Positions 12,689 through 33,469 of a DNA stretch of 64,000 nucleotides are shown in pieces. Below the pieces are notes generated by a model. It had not been told where the DNA came from, made no database searches, and saw nothing but the letters and a program-made list of their open reading frames with translations. The DNA is taken from positions 1,856,001-1,920,000 of the forward strand of contig CAXXLL010000002.1 in the NCBI GenBank assembly GCA_963662545.2, in the 5' to 3' direction. The position numbers and the translations under genes were made by a program. Each line of letters starts with the position of its first letter. Position 1 is the stretch's first letter. The stretch is from Gammaproteobacteria bacterium. GTDB lineage: Bacteria; Pseudomonadota; Gammaproteobacteria; Ga0077536.

Positions 12689-14481
12689 TTACTCGACGGC
12701 AAAAGCCCGGGCGAACACCGTCGGCTGGCCCTTGTACGCGCCCACGCGCGCTTCGGCGAACTGTTCGAAACCCGCGGCATGGCCGCCGTCCGATCCGAAC
12801 AAGAGGGCCCCTCGCAACCCTTTGTTGCGCTGCAGCCTTTCCTCGTGCGAGCTCGCCGCGAGGATATTGTCGGCGCGCCGCACATAAACGTAGCGTACCC
12901 AAGGGTAATCCCGTTTGAGTTCCGAGGGACTCAAAGCGAGCATCGTCTCGACCAGATCGATCTTAGCCAGGTGTTGTTCGGTCATGATGAAGTTATTGGC
13001 GATGATCGAGCAATCCGTATGGAAACGCAGGTAATGCCCGTCGTTGAAATCCGCGAGAACAACGCCCGGCTCGCGCTCGCATCGTTTCCCGAGTTCAAGA
13101 AACATCGGTCGTTGCAACAAGTATTCGAGATGTCCGCCAAGCGCTGGACTGTCGCCGAGATGATAAAGCCCGGGCCACATCGCGAGCGCCAGTGCCGCGA
13201 TCGAAAGAACCGACACCGCTATCCGGCGCGCCGGCGCTAACTGAAGTCGTAGGTGATCCGCACTGATGATCAGGGGCAGGTACAGCGCGAAGCTGCCGAA
13301 ATAGTGCAGCCGTTCCTGGGCAAGTAATAGCGCAAGCCACCGCAGGCGCCGAGGTCGAAGACGACCCGCGCCGGATCGCGCCCGCGCACGACGCCGTACA
13401 GACAACAGGCAAAAGTCACTGGCATTACAAGAAAAAAGCCCGAATACGCGGTGAGAAGCGCGCCCAACCCGCCGCTGAAAACCGATTTCAGCGGGCTCCG
13501 CACTTCGTTTATGGGGGCGAGATGGGCGAGGTTCGCCCCGACGAAATCGAACCCTTGCCTGACCTGCGCGATGTTCAACAGTAGCAAAGCGGCAATGGAC
13601 AGCAGCCACAGGGCATGGCGTGAGGGCAAGGCCCGCGTCGCGAGCAATACCGTCAGGGCGGTGAAGCTTGCAGCCGCGAGGTGAAACCAGGACAGGAGAT
13701 AGAAAGCGTAGCTGCCGGCGCGAAAGGGTTGGGACGGAATCAAGACCATCACGGTCGCAGCGAGCAATGCGATCGCGAAATGTCTCGAGGTGGTCGAGGG
13801 GACGGGTAGCTTGCGGAATGCCAGGATGGCCAGTCCGGCGATCAGGGGTGCCTGCAGTACGAACAGGCCGTTATGAAATGCGGGCGCCACGCCCAGCACG
13901 ATGCCCGTCGCGAGCGCTGCGGCGCGCGAGGTCTGGTTCTGCATCCATGTGATCGCCGTGATCAGAAATCCGAGGACGAAAGCGAATTCGACGAAATGGT
14001 GGTCGATACGCCCGACGGCATGCAGTGCCTGGGTAAGCGGGGACAGGGCGAAGCACGCGCCGCCCAGTATGGCGGCAAAATGTGAAGCGCCCAGCGCACG
14101 AACCAGTCCCAGCCATAAGGCGGCGGTCAGCAAGGTGGTATAGACGGGAATCAACACGAGCACCTGCATTGGATCGCGCGCGGGCGATAGCCCGTGGAAA
14201 GCGGCCACGATCCTTGCGCACAGCCAGTCGTACGCCCATGGCCAGGTCAACATGCTGCCTTCCGGCATGTGTATGCGAACGTCGAACTGGTAGAACCCGG
14301 TAGCGCCGATGGCGGCGTCCAGAATACGGCGCGCGTGGTAGAAGGCGTCGGGACCGACAGGAACGAAACTACCGTCCACCGACGAGGCCGGCATCCAGTT
14401 GAGGCCCGCTACCACTGCCGCCGTCCCGGTCAACAGCCAGATGAAAAACGATACGGTAAATCGCCGGTCGTCGAGCGTCAT
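12689..14481 (-). pseudogene. STT3/AglB-like membrane glycosyltransferase, copy 1, frameshifted near 13330-13345
   Basis: ORF 13270..14481 (PDAFYHARRI, TWPWAYD, GRIDHHFVE, INE) and ORF 12689..13609 (RLHYFG, VLADFNDGHYL, IIANNF) join into one protein collinear with 39274..41031 if one base is restored. Confidence 0.8.
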
Positions 14482-18408: not shown

Positions 18409-18600
18409 GGAATCGTAACGATGTGGGTGGGAGAGCGGTCTGAGAGGTGTCATGGTTTGAGGCGAATAGTGGTTCTATTTAACGAAAATCATGGTGCATC
18501 TGGACCGCTATCCCACCGCCGTACGACTGCATGGATGCAGGAGGTAGAGCAATGCAGGAGCAATTGCCGAGTAGATTTCCTAAGTTCGACAGGCTGCTAA
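18388..18600. mobile_element. MITE-like element (family A) with 27-bp terminal inverted repeats
   Basis: Left TTAGCAGCCTGTCGGACTTAGGGAATC vs right GATTTCCTAAGTTCGACAGGCTGCTAA (2 mismatches); internal hairpin arms; no ORF. Confidence 0.8.
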
Positions 18601-18608
18601 GCAGCCGG

Positions 18609-19253
18609 TCATTGAACGGCTGAGTGGGTTTCCGTCGCCGGTTCGAATACGCGCTTTATTTCGACTGGTTCTTTTAATATCCGCATTTCGAGCTTGATCT
18701 GGTAGAGCAGTTGACGGGGATTACTCTTGACCGTGATTTTTTCGATGACCTTACCACCGTTCGGCGGATCCGTTTCGAGTATCAGAGTGCCGCTCTCCCA
18801 GTAGGCCAGCGTGTGTCCCAGCGTATCGGCCACCAACTCCTCGCCGCTTGCCGAGAATACCCGGCCAGCCGGATTCGGTTTGATCGATCGCGGCAGCTCG
18901 CCGTCGTAGAGGATTTCGTAACCGTCATCGAGGCGTGAAATGTCGAAGCGGCCCGCTTTGACGAGTGGATATACCGCGCCCAGACGCCTTAAGTTTTTTA
19001 GGCTGCTTCGCTCTTTGCCTGCGCGGACCGTATCCCAGTAGGCGTTCTGAGTCTCGTCGTAAGGGCCTTTTTCCCCACTTCCCCGGATCGGCGGGCGCGG
19101 CGTTGGGAAACCTCTCTTGCGCAGTTTTCCGCTGAACGCCTTTTTCGTGTCATCACTCAGTACTTCATCGATTACCCAGCCACCTTCGATCGCTGGCTCG
19201 GCGTGAACGATCCCGGCGGTGAGGAGGAAGGCGGCTAAGGTGTATTTGAGCAA
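18609..19253 (-). CDS. Hypothetical secreted protein
   Basis: Signal-peptide-like LLKYTLAAFLLTAGIVHA then a globular region; TTG start uncertain; the upstream ORF extension is not credible. Confidence 0.65.
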   Translation of the reverse strand: MLKYTLAAFLLTAGIVHAEPAIEGGWVIDEVLSDDTKKAFSGKLRKRGFPTPRPPIRGSGEKGPYDETQNAYWDTVRAGKERSSLKNLRRLGAVYPLVKAGRFDISRLDDGYEILYDGELPRSIKPNPAGRVFSASGEELVADTLGHTLAYWESGTLILETDPPNGGKVIEKITVKSNPRQLLYQIKLEMRILKEPVEIKRVFEPATETHSAVQ

Positions 19254-19667
19254 TCCGACGATCAAAAACCTGCCCGTAATGGCGGCGTAGATACCGATGG
19301 GCACGCGTCTTCGTGGCACGCCCCGGTTCACCGTGGTGCGTCTGGTTCTCGATCTGTGGCGATCATCGTGCATTCGTTGGAACGGGCAGTGCGTTACGCA
19401 AAGGAGATCGCCGGGTTGCGTTATGCTTGTACGCCACCCGGAGAAGCCGGCGATCGACCGTTCGGATGCATGTTGCCACGCCGTACCCCGTGCCTCAACC
19501 GCATTGATCATGAAGGAGAAATATGTGGCCAGTATGAAGATTCCATTGCAACCTGGTCCACGCGCAGTGGCGGTACCGGTTGACGCAGGTCTCTGCTGCG
19601 ATACCCGGCTGACTGCTCGACGATTTACCGCGTTGCGATCCACTCGATCGGGGCAGGGCGTCCGCAC

Positions 19668-20336
19668 ATGATCAAGGTCATTTCGGTGATTAAGCGCAAG
19701 GCGGACATGGAAGTGGACGCGTTTCAGAAATACTGGTTGAACGTCCACGCCGACATCGTATTGCAGATGCCGGGGATTCGGCGCTATGTTCAGTCGCATA
19801 CACTGATCGCAGGTTACAGGAAAGGCGAACCGGCCGCCGACGGTATCGCCGAGCTATGGCTTGACGACAGCGATGCGCTGCACGCGCTCGCGGGCACAGC
19901 CGAACTGGCGGCCGCGAGCGCCGACCACGCCACATTCATCGCACCGAACAGCCGCCGCCAAATCGTGACCGTGGAGCACGTGATCAAGGACGGCACGATA
20001 CCGGACGGGGCGGTGAAAAACATCGAATTCGTCAAGAAGAAGCCCGGCATGCCGGTCGACGAATTCCAGCGTTACTGGAAGTCGGTACACGGACCGATCG
20101 GCGCAGCCATCGCGCCGATCCGGCGTTATGTTCAGAGCCACACCTTGGTCGCGGCCTATCGGGACAGGCAAGCACCGCCGCTCGACGGTGCGGCTCTGAC
20201 CTGGTTTGACGACACCGATGGCATGCGCGCTGCGGCGCGCTCCGCCGAATATGCGGCAACCCGTGCTGACGAGGACAATTTCGTGAGTGCGTCACTGGAA
20301 TTCATCATCACGCGTGAACACGTCATCGTGGCTTGA
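19668..20336 (+). CDS. EthD-family protein with two tandem EthD domains
   Basis: Repeated K.GM..DEFQ.YW..VH...IRRYVQSH...DG.A..W motif. Confidence 0.88.
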   Translation: MIKVISVIKRKADMEVDAFQKYWLNVHADIVLQMPGIRRYVQSHTLIAGYRKGEPAADGIAELWLDDSDALHALAGTAELAAASADHATFIAPNSRRQIVTVEHVIKDGTIPDGAVKNIEFVKKKPGMPVDEFQRYWKSVHGPIGAAIAPIRRYVQSHTLVAAYRDRQAPPLDGAALTWFDDTDGMRAAARSAEYAATRADEDNFVSASLEFIITREHVIVA

Positions 20337-30900: not shown

Positions 30901-31647
30901 CTAATTTAAATACACGCCGCCATTAACGTGCAACGTTTGCCCGGTCATGAAGGATGCGTCGCCCGACAATAGAAACGACACCGTGCCCGCGATTTCGCGC
31001 GGCTCGCCGCGGCGTTTCATGGGGGTGGCTTGCTCCATTGCTTCGTATTCCTCTTCCGGAAGGACACCCTCCAGCCGTTCGTGCCAGATCAATCCTGGTG
31101 CTATGACGTTGCACGTAATTCCGTGGGCCGCGAGATCCAGCGCAATTGAATGCGTGTAACCGATGATCCCCGCCTTGGCAGCGGCGTAGGGTGATTGTCC
31201 GGGGCCCGGCGTAAACGCGTACAGTGAAGCGAAGTTGACGATACGGCCGAAGCCCGCTTTGACCATTGGTTCGCTGAACGTTCGCGTGCAGTAAAACGTG
31301 CCGTGCAGGTTGACCTTGAGCACGATATCGAAGGTTTTGGGGTTGATGCTCCAGGGCGGTGCCGCCGAGGCGACGCCGGCGTTGTTGACGAGTCGGTCCA
31401 CGTGGATGTCTTGCGCGCGCAACTCGTCGCGCAGCGATTCGATTTCTTCAAGCTTCGTCACGTCGAGCGACCGCATCAGGATGTGCTGGCGCAGCGGATC
31501 TTTGAATCCTTCCAGCCACGCGTCCCCGTCCTCGATGCGCCTGTCGGTGGCGATGACTTGTTGTCCGTCCTCTATCAGACGCCGGACGATCGCCGTGCCG
31601 AGTCCGCCGAAGGCACCCGTGACCAGCGTATAAACCGATAAGCTCAT
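30901..31647 (-). CDS. SDR family oxidoreductase (FabG-like)
   Basis: TGAFGGLG, NNAG, YAAAKAG, TGQTLHVNGG. Confidence 0.92.
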   Translation of the reverse strand: MSLSVYTLVTGAFGGLGTAIVRRLIEDGQQVIATDRRIEDGDAWLEGFKDPLRQHILMRSLDVTKLEEIESLRDELRAQDIHVDRLVNNAGVASAAPPWSINPKTFDIVLKVNLHGTFYCTRTFSEPMVKAGFGRIVNFASLYAFTPGPGQSPYAAAKAGIIGYTHSIALDLAAHGITCNVIAPGLIWHERLEGVLPEEEYEAMEQATPMKRRGEPREIAGTVSFLLSGDASFMTGQTLHVNGGVYLN

Positions 31648-31790
31648 GTCAACTTTTCCCGGTAATCGATGCGACTTGCGATATTAGCGTATTCATGCGG
31701 CCGGAAAGCATCGCCGGAGGTATCGACGGCCGCGAACGTGGGAGCTAAGCTGTAAGTTGCTTACAATAACGCCCCAAGGAGGAACCCATC

Positions 31791-32210
31791 ATGGCCTACG
31801 ACGCTTTAGTCGAACGAAAACTCGATGTACCCCGTTCCAAAGTCTTTGCGGCCTTCTATGATTTTGGCGGTATCGACAAACTCCTGCCCGACATGTTCGG
31901 CTCGTGCGACTGTATCGGCGAGGGCGTGGGCGCCCTGCGGACGCTTAAGTTTGCCGACGGCAGCGGTACGGTCGTCGAACGCATGGAAATTGCCCACGAG
32001 GAATCGATATTCGGCTACACCATCACTGCCAACGACGCACTGCCGATGGAGAATTACTGCGCGACCGTGATGCTGTCCGACACCGGCGACGGCGGCACCA
32101 ACGTCAGTTACGGCAGCAACTGGGATCCGAAAGGCATCGAAGAAGACGAATTACGGACGATGTTGGAGGGTCTCTACGGCGCCATTCTCGACGGGATCGC
32201 CAAGGGGTGA
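31791..32210 (+). CDS. SRPBCC/polyketide cyclase family protein
   Basis: GEGVGALRTL...VVERME...YTI pattern; AAGGAGG RBS. Confidence 0.85.
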   Translation: MAYDALVERKLDVPRSKVFAAFYDFGGIDKLLPDMFGSCDCIGEGVGALRTLKFADGSGTVVERMEIAHEESIFGYTITANDALPMENYCATVMLSDTGDGGTNVSYGSNWDPKGIEEDELRTMLEGLYGAILDGIAKG

Positions 32211-32219
32211 GTCGGAAAA

Positions 32220-32246
32220 GAGAAAGCCATTTAACATGGCTTTCTC
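32220..32246 (-). terminator. Terminator between convergent genes
   Basis: 11-bp stem GAGAAAGCCAT/ATGGCTTTCTC with TTTT on the minus strand. Confidence 0.7.
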
Positions 32247-32255
32247 CCGACGAAC

Positions 32256-32391
32256 GCCCGCACAAGGATGTGCGGGCTGGTGCCAAACGAATACCGTTGA
32301 GTACCGCCAGGGATGGCAGGCACCCACCTTCGAAACTACTCCAGCCTGCATTCAAACAAAGCCCAAAACGTACCGCCAAGGATGCCAGGCA
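32256..32391 (+). repeat. Three CA-NGGA-TG motifs, two within 22-nt direct repeats
   Basis: GCCCGCACA-AGGA-TGTGCGGGC; GTACCGCCAGGGATGGCAGGCA (32301) and GTACCGCCAAGGATGCCAGGCA (32370), 20/22 identical. Confidence 0.7.
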
Positions 32392-32452
32392 GAAAACGAT
32401 TGATGAGCCCTGTCTGCCAGCAAACCGGCTCCAACGGTAGATTCGACCAGTC

Positions 32453-33469
32453 TTACCTGAAGTTCGGCATCACTTCACGCGCGAACAGTTCGAGCGACCG
32501 CGTGCCCTTAGCCGGGTCTAGACCCGGAAATTGCGTGCCCAGAATGAAATCCGTGCACCGATATTCGTCCCGAAACGCCTCTAGCTTTGCCGTTACCTGA
32601 TCTGGCGTGCCAATCATGAAGTGATCCGCAAGAACCGAGTGACGCATGTCGGCGGGCTTGGTCACGGGCAACGGCGCGTCGTCACCTTCGGCATCTTTCG
32701 CGTTCGACAGGATGTCGTGATAGAACTCGAGCATGTGGAAGAGGTGATCCTGGCACTCGTCCCAGGCCTCGTCTTCGCTTTCCGCGCAATAGACCATGCG
32801 TAGCTGCGCGATCTTGAAGTCGGCCGGATCGTGACCCTGTTCCTTCAACGTCTCGAGATACAGCGGGGCAGGATCGGGCCCGATGGTTCCCATCAGGTGA
32901 TAGCCCAATTCCGCGGCCTTTTTGATCGCCTTGGGCGCGCGCGCTCCGATCCAGATCGGCGGGTAGGGCTGCTGTACGGGTTTCGGCGACAGACGTGCAT
33001 CTTTGAGTTGTGTGTACCTGCCGTCATAGGTCACGCGCTCCTCAGTGAACAGACGCTTGATGATGTCGATGCCTTCGCGCATGCGCGATCCGCGCTCGGA
33101 GCGATCCATGCACAGCGCGTTGAACTCGTGGTAGGAATACCCCTGACCGATGCCGAAGTCGAAGCGGCCATCGGAGAAGATGTCGACATTGGCGACTTCC
33201 TCGGCAACCAGCATGGGATGCTGATAAGGCAGCAGTAGTATGAAGGTGCCTATGCGAATGTCCTTGGTGTGGGTTGCAACGGCCGCCGCCGTGGTCATGA
33301 GTGAAGGGTTGTAACCGTCGTCGGTGAAATGGTGCTCGGTCAGCCAGACGTTGTCGTAGCCGAGCGCTTCGCCGCGAACGATCTGTTCGAGAATCTGCTC
33401 GTAGAACTCGGGAAACGGCCGCCGCCATTTCACGGGATTGCGGAAATCCTCCATAAAGCCAAAACGCAT
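32453..33469 (-). CDS. LLM-class flavin-dependent oxidoreductase
   Basis: GYDNVWLTEHHF, HPMLVAEE, GRFDFGIGQGY, PPIWIG. Confidence 0.92.
   Translation of the reverse strand: MRFGFMEDFRNPVKWRRPFPEFYEQILEQIVRGEALGYDNVWLTEHHFTDDGYNPSLMTTAAAVATHTKDIRIGTFILLLPYQHPMLVAEEVANVDIFSDGRFDFGIGQGYSYHEFNALCMDRSERGSRMREGIDIIKRLFTEERVTYDGRYTQLKDARLSPKPVQQPYPPIWIGARAPKAIKKAAELGYHLMGTIGPDPAPLYLETLKEQGHDPADFKIAQLRMVYCAESEDEAWDECQDHLFHMLEFYHDILSNAKDAEGDDAPLPVTKPADMRHSVLADHFMIGTPDQVTAKLEAFRDEYRCTDFILGTQFPGLDPAKGTRSLELFAREVMPNFR

Follow-up and report, generated by a model that had tools for sequence, protein, structure and literature searches.

The cluster of GGA-topped hairpins found in a stretch of 64,000 nt from the genome of a Gammaproteobacteria bacterium (contig CAXXLL010000002.1, positions 1,856,001–1,920,000; this whole stretch is hereafter called the window) is one copy of a structured mobile repeat that is widespread among gammaproteobacteria; it is not a stand-alone small RNA (sRNA) gene. 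The copy occupies approximately positions 32204–32409 of the plus strand and represents a recent, lineage-specific and partly decayed insertion of this element. The first-pass annotation had described three plus-strand GGA hairpins, one with a perfect 9-bp stem, a second and an imperfect third; all three are present where it had placed them, as are the two 22-mers (32302–32323 and 32371–32392) spaced 69 nt apart. The direct repeat is longer than 22 nt, covering 39 nt with 74% identity (32284–32322 and 32353–32391), and a further perfect 11-bp hairpin (32220–32246), absent from that annotation, is part of the same element. GGA-loop hairpins with a perfect stem of at least 4 bp number 28 on the plus strand of the window, against 25.1 ± 4.8 in 200 first-order Markov simulations, and two of the three noted hairpins pass this filter; since the count is within chance, the case for non-randomness rests on family membership.

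The genome-wide count proposed earlier for the 22-mer shows that the exact word is unique in the source genome and has 27 relatives at up to 4 mismatches. An 18-nt core gave 40 genomic matches at up to 3 mismatches versus 3 for a reversed control, and 23 of the 40 have conserved flanks in common; an nhmmer search collected 32 segments, corresponding to about 20 loci. A covariance model (R1), built from 15 own-genome copies, found 30 own-genome matches at E ≤ 0.01, including the window copy at 32202–32326, whose score of 139.1 bits is that of a member of the training set. The unit is about 125 nt long and consists of a GGGYGAG motif, a long helix P0/P1 and two hairpins topped CA-NGGA-UG. In its 5' part the order is GGGYGAG-CCGG-(A-rich bulge)-(hairpin P1)-CCGG-CGARC; in the 3' part there follow hairpin 2 (GCCCGGCCA NGGA TGGCCGGGC), a linker YGG..AAACGAAG.., hairpin 3 (GTAc CGCCA NGGA TGGCa GGyAC) and a tail. 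The direct repeat in the window is an extra half-unit, which defines a two-hairpin-3 subfamily with four members in the genome, the layout being found also at C2:70.4k, C2:1275.5k and C3:1299.3k. The family can also form tandem arrays, as in the four diverged 158-nt units of locus L006 (G000:C3:857655–858261), each carrying about three GGA motifs.

No Rfam 15 family matched the window or 15 other copies, either at the gathering score or at permissive E-values, the hits being neighbouring tRNAs and noise, and literature searches found no published description of an element of this kind. Two further candidates were rejected. A small open reading frame (ORF) starting from an ATG in P1 is 55 aa long in the window, about 16 aa in the consensus and missing where P1 differs. 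As for the whole unit folding like a tRNA, only a D-arm is present, without a T-arm or a 3' acceptor strand, and ARAGORN was negative. The window also contains a weak match to the family model at 13150–13286 on the plus strand (12.3 bits, E 0.088), which is either a decayed copy or a chance hit.

The predicted structure is maintained by covariation. Compensatory changes affect 9 of the 30 predicted pairs among the own-genome copies, and hairpin 2 of the window copy departs from the consensus GGCCA/TGGCC to GCACA/TGTGC through two compensatory pair changes. In 24 other genomes, with 32 matches in all, the proportion of paired cells is 95.1% versus 68.2% in shuffles, none of the 500 shuffles reaching the observed value; sliding the structures by 1–3 columns leaves only 32–43% paired, and 29 of the 30 pairs change on both sides. 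The sequence of P1 is wholly different between lineages and its pairing is kept. Covariation also links Y in GGGYGAG and R in CGARC (CG 9 and UA 4 among own-genome copies, UA 18 and CG 10 among cross-genome matches), with tandem G.A/A.G between them. GGA is found in the loop of hairpin 2 in 56 of 67 copies and in the loop of hairpin 3 in 59 of 68, versus 1 of 58 at the tip of P1.

Searches with R1 matched 13 of 60 relatives. Within the family of the source organism, matches were found in 9 of 39 other genomes, with 8–11 copies in two genomes of the same genus and 1–2 copies elsewhere. In a sample of the class with one genome per family, 32 of 150 genomes from other families carry the element, a tally that counts the unpublished genomes G075 and G176 and becomes 30 of 148 without them; the copy numbers are lower bounds, and several genomes hold at least about 20 copies. 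An exact-pattern scan of named genomes (at least 120 stretches) gave, among the matches listed, Lysobacter, Luteimonas, Pseudoxanthomonas and Thermomonas, and likewise Solimonas, Nevskia, Sinimarinibacterium, Pseudohongiella, Sedimenticola and others.

It is very probable that this family is a mobile repeat directed to particular targets. The element is missing at all 64 loci encoding orthologues of the monooxygenase that flanks the window copy. In the closest relative (L017, 96% protein identity), GCCAAGGGGTGAG is followed by an inverted pair of repetitive extragenic palindromic (REP) sequences, and in the window the same GCCAAGGGGTGAG is followed by the element. The same eight bases end the gene in this nearest relative without the element, so GGGGTGAG predates the insertion; the left junction lies directly after the pre-existing GGGGTGAG, and the same motif is found at many sites. 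The empty site in the nearest relative holds a REPIN in the element's place, so the right junction is undefined there. A second empty-site comparison, at C2:1807k, gave no result, the same-genus genomes being only about 75% identical and not syntenic and the nearest relative being absent from the matches to that gene. Terminal inverted repeats were not found in the alignments; flanking direct repeats at tRNA genes are about 19–30 nt long and variable, and, as judged by eye, only the right edge is fixed.

The target motif frequently coincides with a stop codon. In the window, the TGA of the upstream SRPBCC-family gene (32208–32210) lies inside the 5' GGGGTGAG of the element and is preceded by 146 open in-frame codons. 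In four of six own-genome copies that contain GGGTGAG, the TGA is the stop of an ORF with 122–365 open codons, and one further own-genome copy begins at a TAG stop. In named Lysobacteraceae and their relatives, the element starts at the stop of SufB/D, NuoK, RpoA, CdsA, GuaA, GH25 and ARD genes, as assigned with Pfam; one such copy is followed by an ABC ATPase gene, which places the element inside operons too. Two copies lie in frame inside the KdpA and aldo-keto reductase (Aldo_ket_red) domains, adding about 40–50 residues; PstB/PhoU and HrpA-like hosts were recognised by eye only. The element thus has several traits of miniature inverted-repeat transposable elements (MITEs) and Rickettsia palindromic elements (RPEs): it is multicopy, it is present or absent between relatives and it is occasionally inserted in frame in ORFs. 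A copy in a Thermomonas sp. contig (L151) is apparently read through in frame within an ORF that resembles an HrpA-type helicase by eye, a 185-aa stretch of which had no Pfam match.

Another preferred location is the front of tRNA genes. At 21 of 42 loci in other genomes, the element lies directly upstream of a tRNA gene and is co-oriented with it (11 of 18 plus 10 of 24 loci, the latter set including L120 from unpublished G176). The tRNA species beside it are Thr, Met, Phe, Arg, Ser, Lys, Cys and Val, and a few copies face the 3' end of a tRNA gene in convergent orientation. A typical layout comprises leader bits and the tRNA 5' part up to the D-loop GG, followed by the element beginning with GYGAGCC, a spacer and the complete tRNA; the repeated tRNA 5' part and the GYGAGC of the element make up a full D-arm. 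At locus L106, a three-unit array adjoins tRNA-Phe with a gap of about 9 nt after the last unit. At L093, a unit with a tRNA-Phe 5' part is located in a tRNA-Met locus, an arrangement consistent with a circular or copied unit having integrated at the D-loop junction. The source genome has the tRNA layout beside a degenerate tRNA (C2:472k), a copy in front of tRNA-Val and a fragment with hairpin 3 only in front of tRNA-Ser(GGA). The 4 × 158-nt array mentioned above starts in the stop codon of a gene, inside a TGA; the end of this gene looks HIT-family-like by eye, and the array is the most sponge-like locus of the genome.

In four other genera of the same family, the order coaX, SPOR-domain gene, element, tRNA-Thr(TGT) is found at the same place, with one copy of the element in three genomes and two in the fourth. 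The flanking proteins are only 34–50% identical, and hairpin 3 with its GGA is kept in all four genomes. Retention despite such divergence argues for a function, since neutral DNA would not survive.

The features of the window copy are collected in the table. Within helix P0/P1, GTGAG-TCGG pairs with CCGA-CGAAC, tandem G.A/A.G included, and encloses an AAAA bulge and the perfect 11-bp hairpin, whose arms are 32220–32230 and 32236–32246. The perfect 9-bp stem of hairpin 2 is formed by GCCCGCACA (32256–32264) and TGTGCGGGC (32269–32277), with GGA at 32266–32268. In hairpin 3a, GCCA-GGGA-TGGC takes positions 32306–32317 of the plus strand; hairpin 3b, GCCA-AGGA-TGCC at 32375–32386, has one C.C mismatch. 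The tail AAAACGATTGATGAGCC is similar both to the tail of the family, cGGAaTGATTGATcag, and to the D-loop junction of tRNAs, ..TTGG-GTGAGCC; judging by this likeness, it may be a degenerate second copy of the junction motif. The hairpin region forms the 242-nt spacer (32211–32452) between two convergent ORFs.

Table. Position of the structured element and of its neighbouring genes in the window.
Feature	Position	Strand	Basis
Upstream gene, 139 aa, Polyketide_cyc2/SRPBCC family	31791..32210	+	ORF list; Pfam PF10604, E 7.4e-11
GGGGTGAG, conserved 5' junction/target motif (GGGYGAG)	32204..32211	+	Alignment of window with L017; family alignments
Helix P0/P1	32207..32255	+	Inverted repeat, minimum free energy fold, consensus structure, pair counts
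Hairpin 2, loop AGGA (CACA-AGGA-UGUG top)	32256..32277	+	Inverted repeat search
Linker with conserved AAACGAA(G) motif	32278..32300	+	Family alignments
Hairpin 3a, GTAC-CGCCA-GGGA-TGGCA-GGCAC; end of 126-position family-model core	32301..32323	+	
Extra half-unit (linker and hairpin 3b)	32324..32392	+	Direct repeat
3' tail AAAACGATTGATGAGCC	32393..32409	+	Read from sequence
Convergent downstream gene, 338 aa, luciferase-like monooxygenase	32453..33469	-	ORF list; Pfam PF00296, E 2.4e-64

The strand carrying GGA is the sense strand in every host context seen, namely stop codons, operon spacers, in-frame insertions and tRNA leaders. At L106, the array and tRNA-Phe are only about 9 nt apart, too close for a promoter to fit between them, and transcription of this array must therefore proceed on the GGA strand. 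Cross-genome alignments contain more G.U than A.C combinations on this strand (24:7 and 18:11). In the window, a metatranscriptome contig spanning 31791–32321 runs from the SRPBCC-family gene into the element, with at least 31 letters on each side of the stop codon, and a second contig, from another sample of the same study, spans 32182–32390; both are strandless, and for both an origin from DNA is possible. No RNA contig was found over 32322–32404 in run X15, nor over 31300–31790 in either run. Run X21 gave no contig. The contig ends at 32321 and 32390 are uninformative as to RNA ends, because the 31-mers there are shared with other copies. The earlier suggestion of an RNA derived from a 3' untranslated region (UTR) would fit the contig that runs from the gene into the element. 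A promoter and terminator scan of 31600–33000 found no promoter-like site and no plus-strand terminator, as had already been noted for the latter, and the sequence upstream of the element is not conserved among copies. In other copies of the same genus, the minus-strand P1 precedes TTTTT and resembles an intrinsic terminator of the convergent gene; this tract is lineage-specific.

The tops of the hairpins match the CsrA-type CA-NGGA-UG, as the first-pass annotation had read them, and csrA is present in the source genome. Among genomes with the element, 29 of 32 encode CsrA, the other three being 69–88% complete; among those without the element, 93 of 118 do. Of 25 published genomes examined, 5 have copies of the element within the csrA-tRNASer-tRNAArg unit, as does unpublished G176; no copy lies there in the source genome. 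The two GGA motifs of a unit are 45 nt apart, within the range that one CsrA dimer can bridge.

Taken together, the locus is best explained not as an sRNA gene but as an insertion, specific to the lineage, of a non-coding mobile element that is structured and in the window has an additional hairpin-3 half-unit; the chances appear even that such elements of about 125 nt act within host transcripts, where they would putatively bind CsrA. The element would land in one orientation at GGGYGAG-like sites: the tRNA D-loop, with the tRNA 5' part repeated before it, GGG-TGA-G stops, REP flanks and, occasionally, GGT-GAG in ORFs. With a fixed orientation of landing, the GGA strand would always be the sense strand of the host transcript, in the window that of the SRPBCC-family gene, in its 3' UTR. 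Folding of the transcript is predicted to give the long P0/P1 helix and two hairpins presenting CA-NGGA-UG about 45 nt apart, and each transcribed unit could hold one CsrA dimer. In tRNA leaders, 3' UTRs and intercistronic spacers, the copies would in that case serve as cis-acting CsrA sites and, jointly, as a dispersed CsrA sink. For the binding step by itself, judged from the motif, the probability that transcribed units bind CsrA is close to even or slightly below. A bolder version, which is speculative and rather unlikely, would see a self-propagating CsrA-binding module with its home in the 5' leaders of tRNA operons (in some lineages, in the csrA/tRNA-Ser spacer); such a module would tie the transcription of stable RNA to free CsrA, bring new genes under Csr control by being copied into GGG-TGA-G stop codons and operon spacers and build up a dispersed sponge; the cargo of this mobile element would be a site that binds a regulatory protein.

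Several observations weigh against a CsrA-binding element of host transcripts. CsrA binding is proposed from the likeness of the motif, and as CsrA is nearly ubiquitous in the class, its co-occurrence with the element is uninformative; the frequency of copies in the csrA-tRNA locus is at most suggestive and is about what tRNA linkage alone gives in high-copy genomes. The matches behind the pairing and loop counts were found by, and aligned to, a model that already held the structure and the GGA loops, which inflates these counts. GGA is lost from hairpin 2 in 5 of 15 own-genome copies, and this loss, together with the mismatched third hairpin of the window, makes many copies look neutral. Among own-genome copies, G.U and A.C occur 11:14, which gives no strand signal, and the RNA evidence consists of strandless contigs from one study, in which DNA may be present. 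The constant sense orientation is also explained by a strand-specific target combined with selection, and recurrent insertion at the same tRNA-Thr may account for the conserved site in place of retention. Finally, searches for Y1 transposases and integrases found no mobilising enzyme.

This last point bears equally on the strongest rival explanation, according to which the element is purely selfish mobile DNA, its hairpins being signals in single-stranded DNA in the style of IS200/IS605, REP-associated tyrosine transposases (RAYTs) or attC, with GYGAG paired to the internal CGARC and the likeness to CsrA sites coincidental. The multicopy and patchy distribution, the presence or absence between close relatives, the fixed 5' target without a terminal inverted repeat and the in-frame insertions in KdpA and aldo-keto reductase all suit selfish DNA, as do the lost GGA loops and the even wobble counts in the source genome, and guide–target pairing predicts the covariation of Y and R. 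The layout is similar to that of IS200/IS605 ends, in which inverted termini are lacking, two similar hairpins are present and the fixed target pairs with an internal stretch at the base of a hairpin. The search for a partner enzyme was negative or weak, however, and leaves this likeness unsupported: in six genomes rich in the element, none of 19 Y1_Tnp loci has an element end (R1, E ≤ 0.01), and the searches revealed neither an autonomous copy nor a Y1 transposase linked to the element. Y1_Tnp is present in 25 of 32 carrier genomes and in 68 of 118 non-carriers, a weak co-occurrence, and G050, with at least 13 copies and 97% completeness, has none; integron integrase (TIGR02249) is similarly weakly associated (17 of 32 versus 41 of 118) and is missing from several high-copy genomes (G050, G061, G083 and G155). 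Selfish DNA would also be expected to have decayed at the syntenic tRNA-Thr site kept by four genera, and the tops of both hairpins match the CsrA consensus when the tip of P1 does not. On balance, this explanation is possible, though somewhat unlikely.

A separate REP family, GTAGGAGCCCGCTTGCGGGCGAAT, has at least 84 sites in the source genome and often adjoins the element; there is a likeness between its GCGGGCGA flank and the target motif. REPs of this family, and not the element, flank a Y1_Tnp (RAYT-like) gene at C3:129518–129832. The genome also has two full-length integron-integrase genes (TIGR02249, about 460 bits each; G000:C2:996723–997664 and G000:C3:1527239–1528180), one of which is about 7 kb from the element copy at C2:1004885.

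The element could also be a functional RNA of tRNA operons and 3' UTRs with a partner other than CsrA, for example a processing or stability module bounded by RNase P cleavage. The structure is strongly conserved, with the P0/P1 helix and a conserved CGAAG motif in the linker as parts for which a role with CsrA has no need; a complete tRNA-like D-arm arises from the 5' end and the repeated 5' part of the tRNA, and the element has long been retained in the tRNA-Thr leader. Yet to our knowledge no other known partner recognises CA-NGGA-UG tops, and with no Rfam match, RtT RNA and tRNA-like families included, nothing points to a particular alternative; we regard this as improbable.

Less probable still is a role as a terminator or transcript-end stabiliser of the convergent gene pair, in which P1 and a T run on the minus strand would end the monooxygenase transcript. 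Most own-genome copies do lie between convergent genes, according to crude ORF calls, and in the same genus the A-rich bulge 5' of P1 is equivalent to a U tract on the minus strand. The A tract is, however, lineage-bound, not being conserved in other lineages such as those of L094, L096 and L097; in the window, P1 on the minus strand (32216–32246) is followed by only four T and was not called by the terminator scan, and the plus-strand hairpins have no following T run. Copies in operons, tRNA leaders and ORFs cannot be terminators.

The first suggestion of the first-pass annotation, a small Csr sponge RNA, is not supported. The classical alternative, an Rsm/Csr sponge sRNA gene that is driven by GacA/UvrY and has a promoter and a terminator of its own, fails and is hardly credible in spite of three GGA hairpins in 136 nt and the presence of csrA, given that no Rfam Csr/Rsm family matches, no promoter-like site or plus-strand terminator is found, the upstream sequence is unconserved, the element begins inside the upstream stop codon, none of the 28 GacA-box-like sites of the genome is at this locus and the element is missing from all the orthologous loci. 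The Rfam scan for CsrB and RsmX/Y/Z recommended in the first-pass annotation gave 0 matches in the window at the gathering score and only noise at E ≤ 10 on 32000–32700; Csr/Rsm models found nothing at E ≤ 1 on 15 family loci, and their best genome-wide scores were 20.1 bits for RsmZ (cut-off 44) and 21.9 for RsmY (cut-off 57), with none for CsrB. As candidates for a canonical Rsm gene elsewhere in the genome, two GacA-box-like sites with many GGA downstream and the seven GGA-densest windows were rejected, since by eye they look coding or unrelated; the GacA-box and GGA-dense scans thus gave no other lead to an alternative Csr RNA.

The other suggestion made at that stage, decayed copies of a GGA mini-element, was essentially right: the element is multicopy and the third hairpin is decayed. 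The element is, however, not the one at 18527 with which it had been compared, because the family model has no match there (window 18520–18580). That site consists of CTGCA-TGGA-TGCAG and GCAAT-GCAGGAGCA-ATTGC, in the spacer before a convergent gene (18609–19799, minus strand), and is either a different element or a genuine CsrA site. In a 565-nt contig of Shewanella abyssi (L191), a terminator-like hairpin is followed by at least five alternating ACATGGATGT/CGCCATGGATGGC hairpins; this repeat looks like a CsrB-type multi-GGA RNA rather than the element.

If the proposed explanation is true, about one fifth of the sampled gammaproteobacterial families carry an unannotated structured element without an Rfam model, and many orphan intergenic GGA hairpins would be explained. 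The element would be a candidate CsrA antagonist for lineages without a known CsrB/Rsm RNA and a natural case in which a mobile element distributes an RNA site for protein binding among 3' UTRs, operon spacers and tRNA leaders, and the D-loop junction and the covarying target-internal pairing would point to a mobilisation mechanism not yet described. The carriers include the cultivable Lysobacter, Luteimonas, Pseudoxanthomonas, Solimonas and Nevskia. For genome annotation, it matters that the element overlaps stop codons and is sometimes in frame inside proteins.

Among known repeats, REP sequences, bacterial interspersed mosaic elements (BIMEs) and REPINs with RAYTs are, like the element, abundant structured extragenic repeats, but the element is about four times longer, has no GTAG head, contains three different helices and does not lie beside Y1 transposase genes. 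RPEs and MITEs share with it a length of about 100–150 bp, structure, multiple copies and tolerance of in-frame insertion; it differs from them in having no terminal inverted repeats, a strict 5' target motif and a strong linkage to tRNA 5' ends. Closer in layout are palindrome-associated transposable elements (PATEs), derived from IS200/IS605, which likewise have no inverted termini, subterminal hairpins, a fixed short target and target-internal pairing; in the element, unlike in PATEs, no autonomous copy or linked Y1 transposase was found.

The sRNAs of stable-RNA operons offer another comparison. The rrA, rrB and rrF RNAs of Escherichia coli rrn operons reportedly bind Hfq and CsrA in vitro, and RtT RNA of the tyrT operon is embedded in a stable-RNA operon and carries a tRNA 3' end. 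Such RNAs are co-transcribed with tRNA or rRNA and released by processing, and the repeat units contain a tRNA piece; they are located 3' of the stable RNA, whereas the element is 5' and carries the tRNA 5' part. The RtT RNA family of Rfam gave no match.

A useful precedent is RsmU (sRX061) of Xanthomonas campestris, an RsmA-sequestering RNA processed from the comEA 3' UTR, which binds RsmA in electrophoretic mobility shift assays and co-immunoprecipitation and is described as limited to Xanthomonas (PMC7694677). It is single-copy and has a Rho-independent terminator at its end. Its hairpins ACAGGAUGU and ACAAGGAUGU in locus L301 are topped ACA(A)GGAUGU. The size of about 80–120 nt and the several GGA-topped hairpins are like those of the element, and the 3'-UTR origin may be shared too; RsmU differs in having no P0/P1 helix, GGGYGAG junction or tRNA linkage. 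On 15 Xanthomonas RsmU loci, R1 with filters off scored at best 5.5 bits (E 1.1), and by this model RsmU is no homologue of the element. Xanthomonas belongs to Lysobacteraceae, other genera of which carry the element.

The dedicated Csr sponges differ from the element in genomic organisation: CsrB/CsrC and RsmX/Y/Z are encoded by one to a few genes with their own promoter, GacA box and terminator, and the element, with none of these, is dispersed in multiple copies. The repeats of CsrB have hairpin tops of the CAGGAUG type, and the repeated tops of CsrB/CsrC and RsmX/Y/Z are in this respect like those of the element. The tandem arrays, with four units in the source genome and three in L106, would place 8–12 GGA sites in one transcript.

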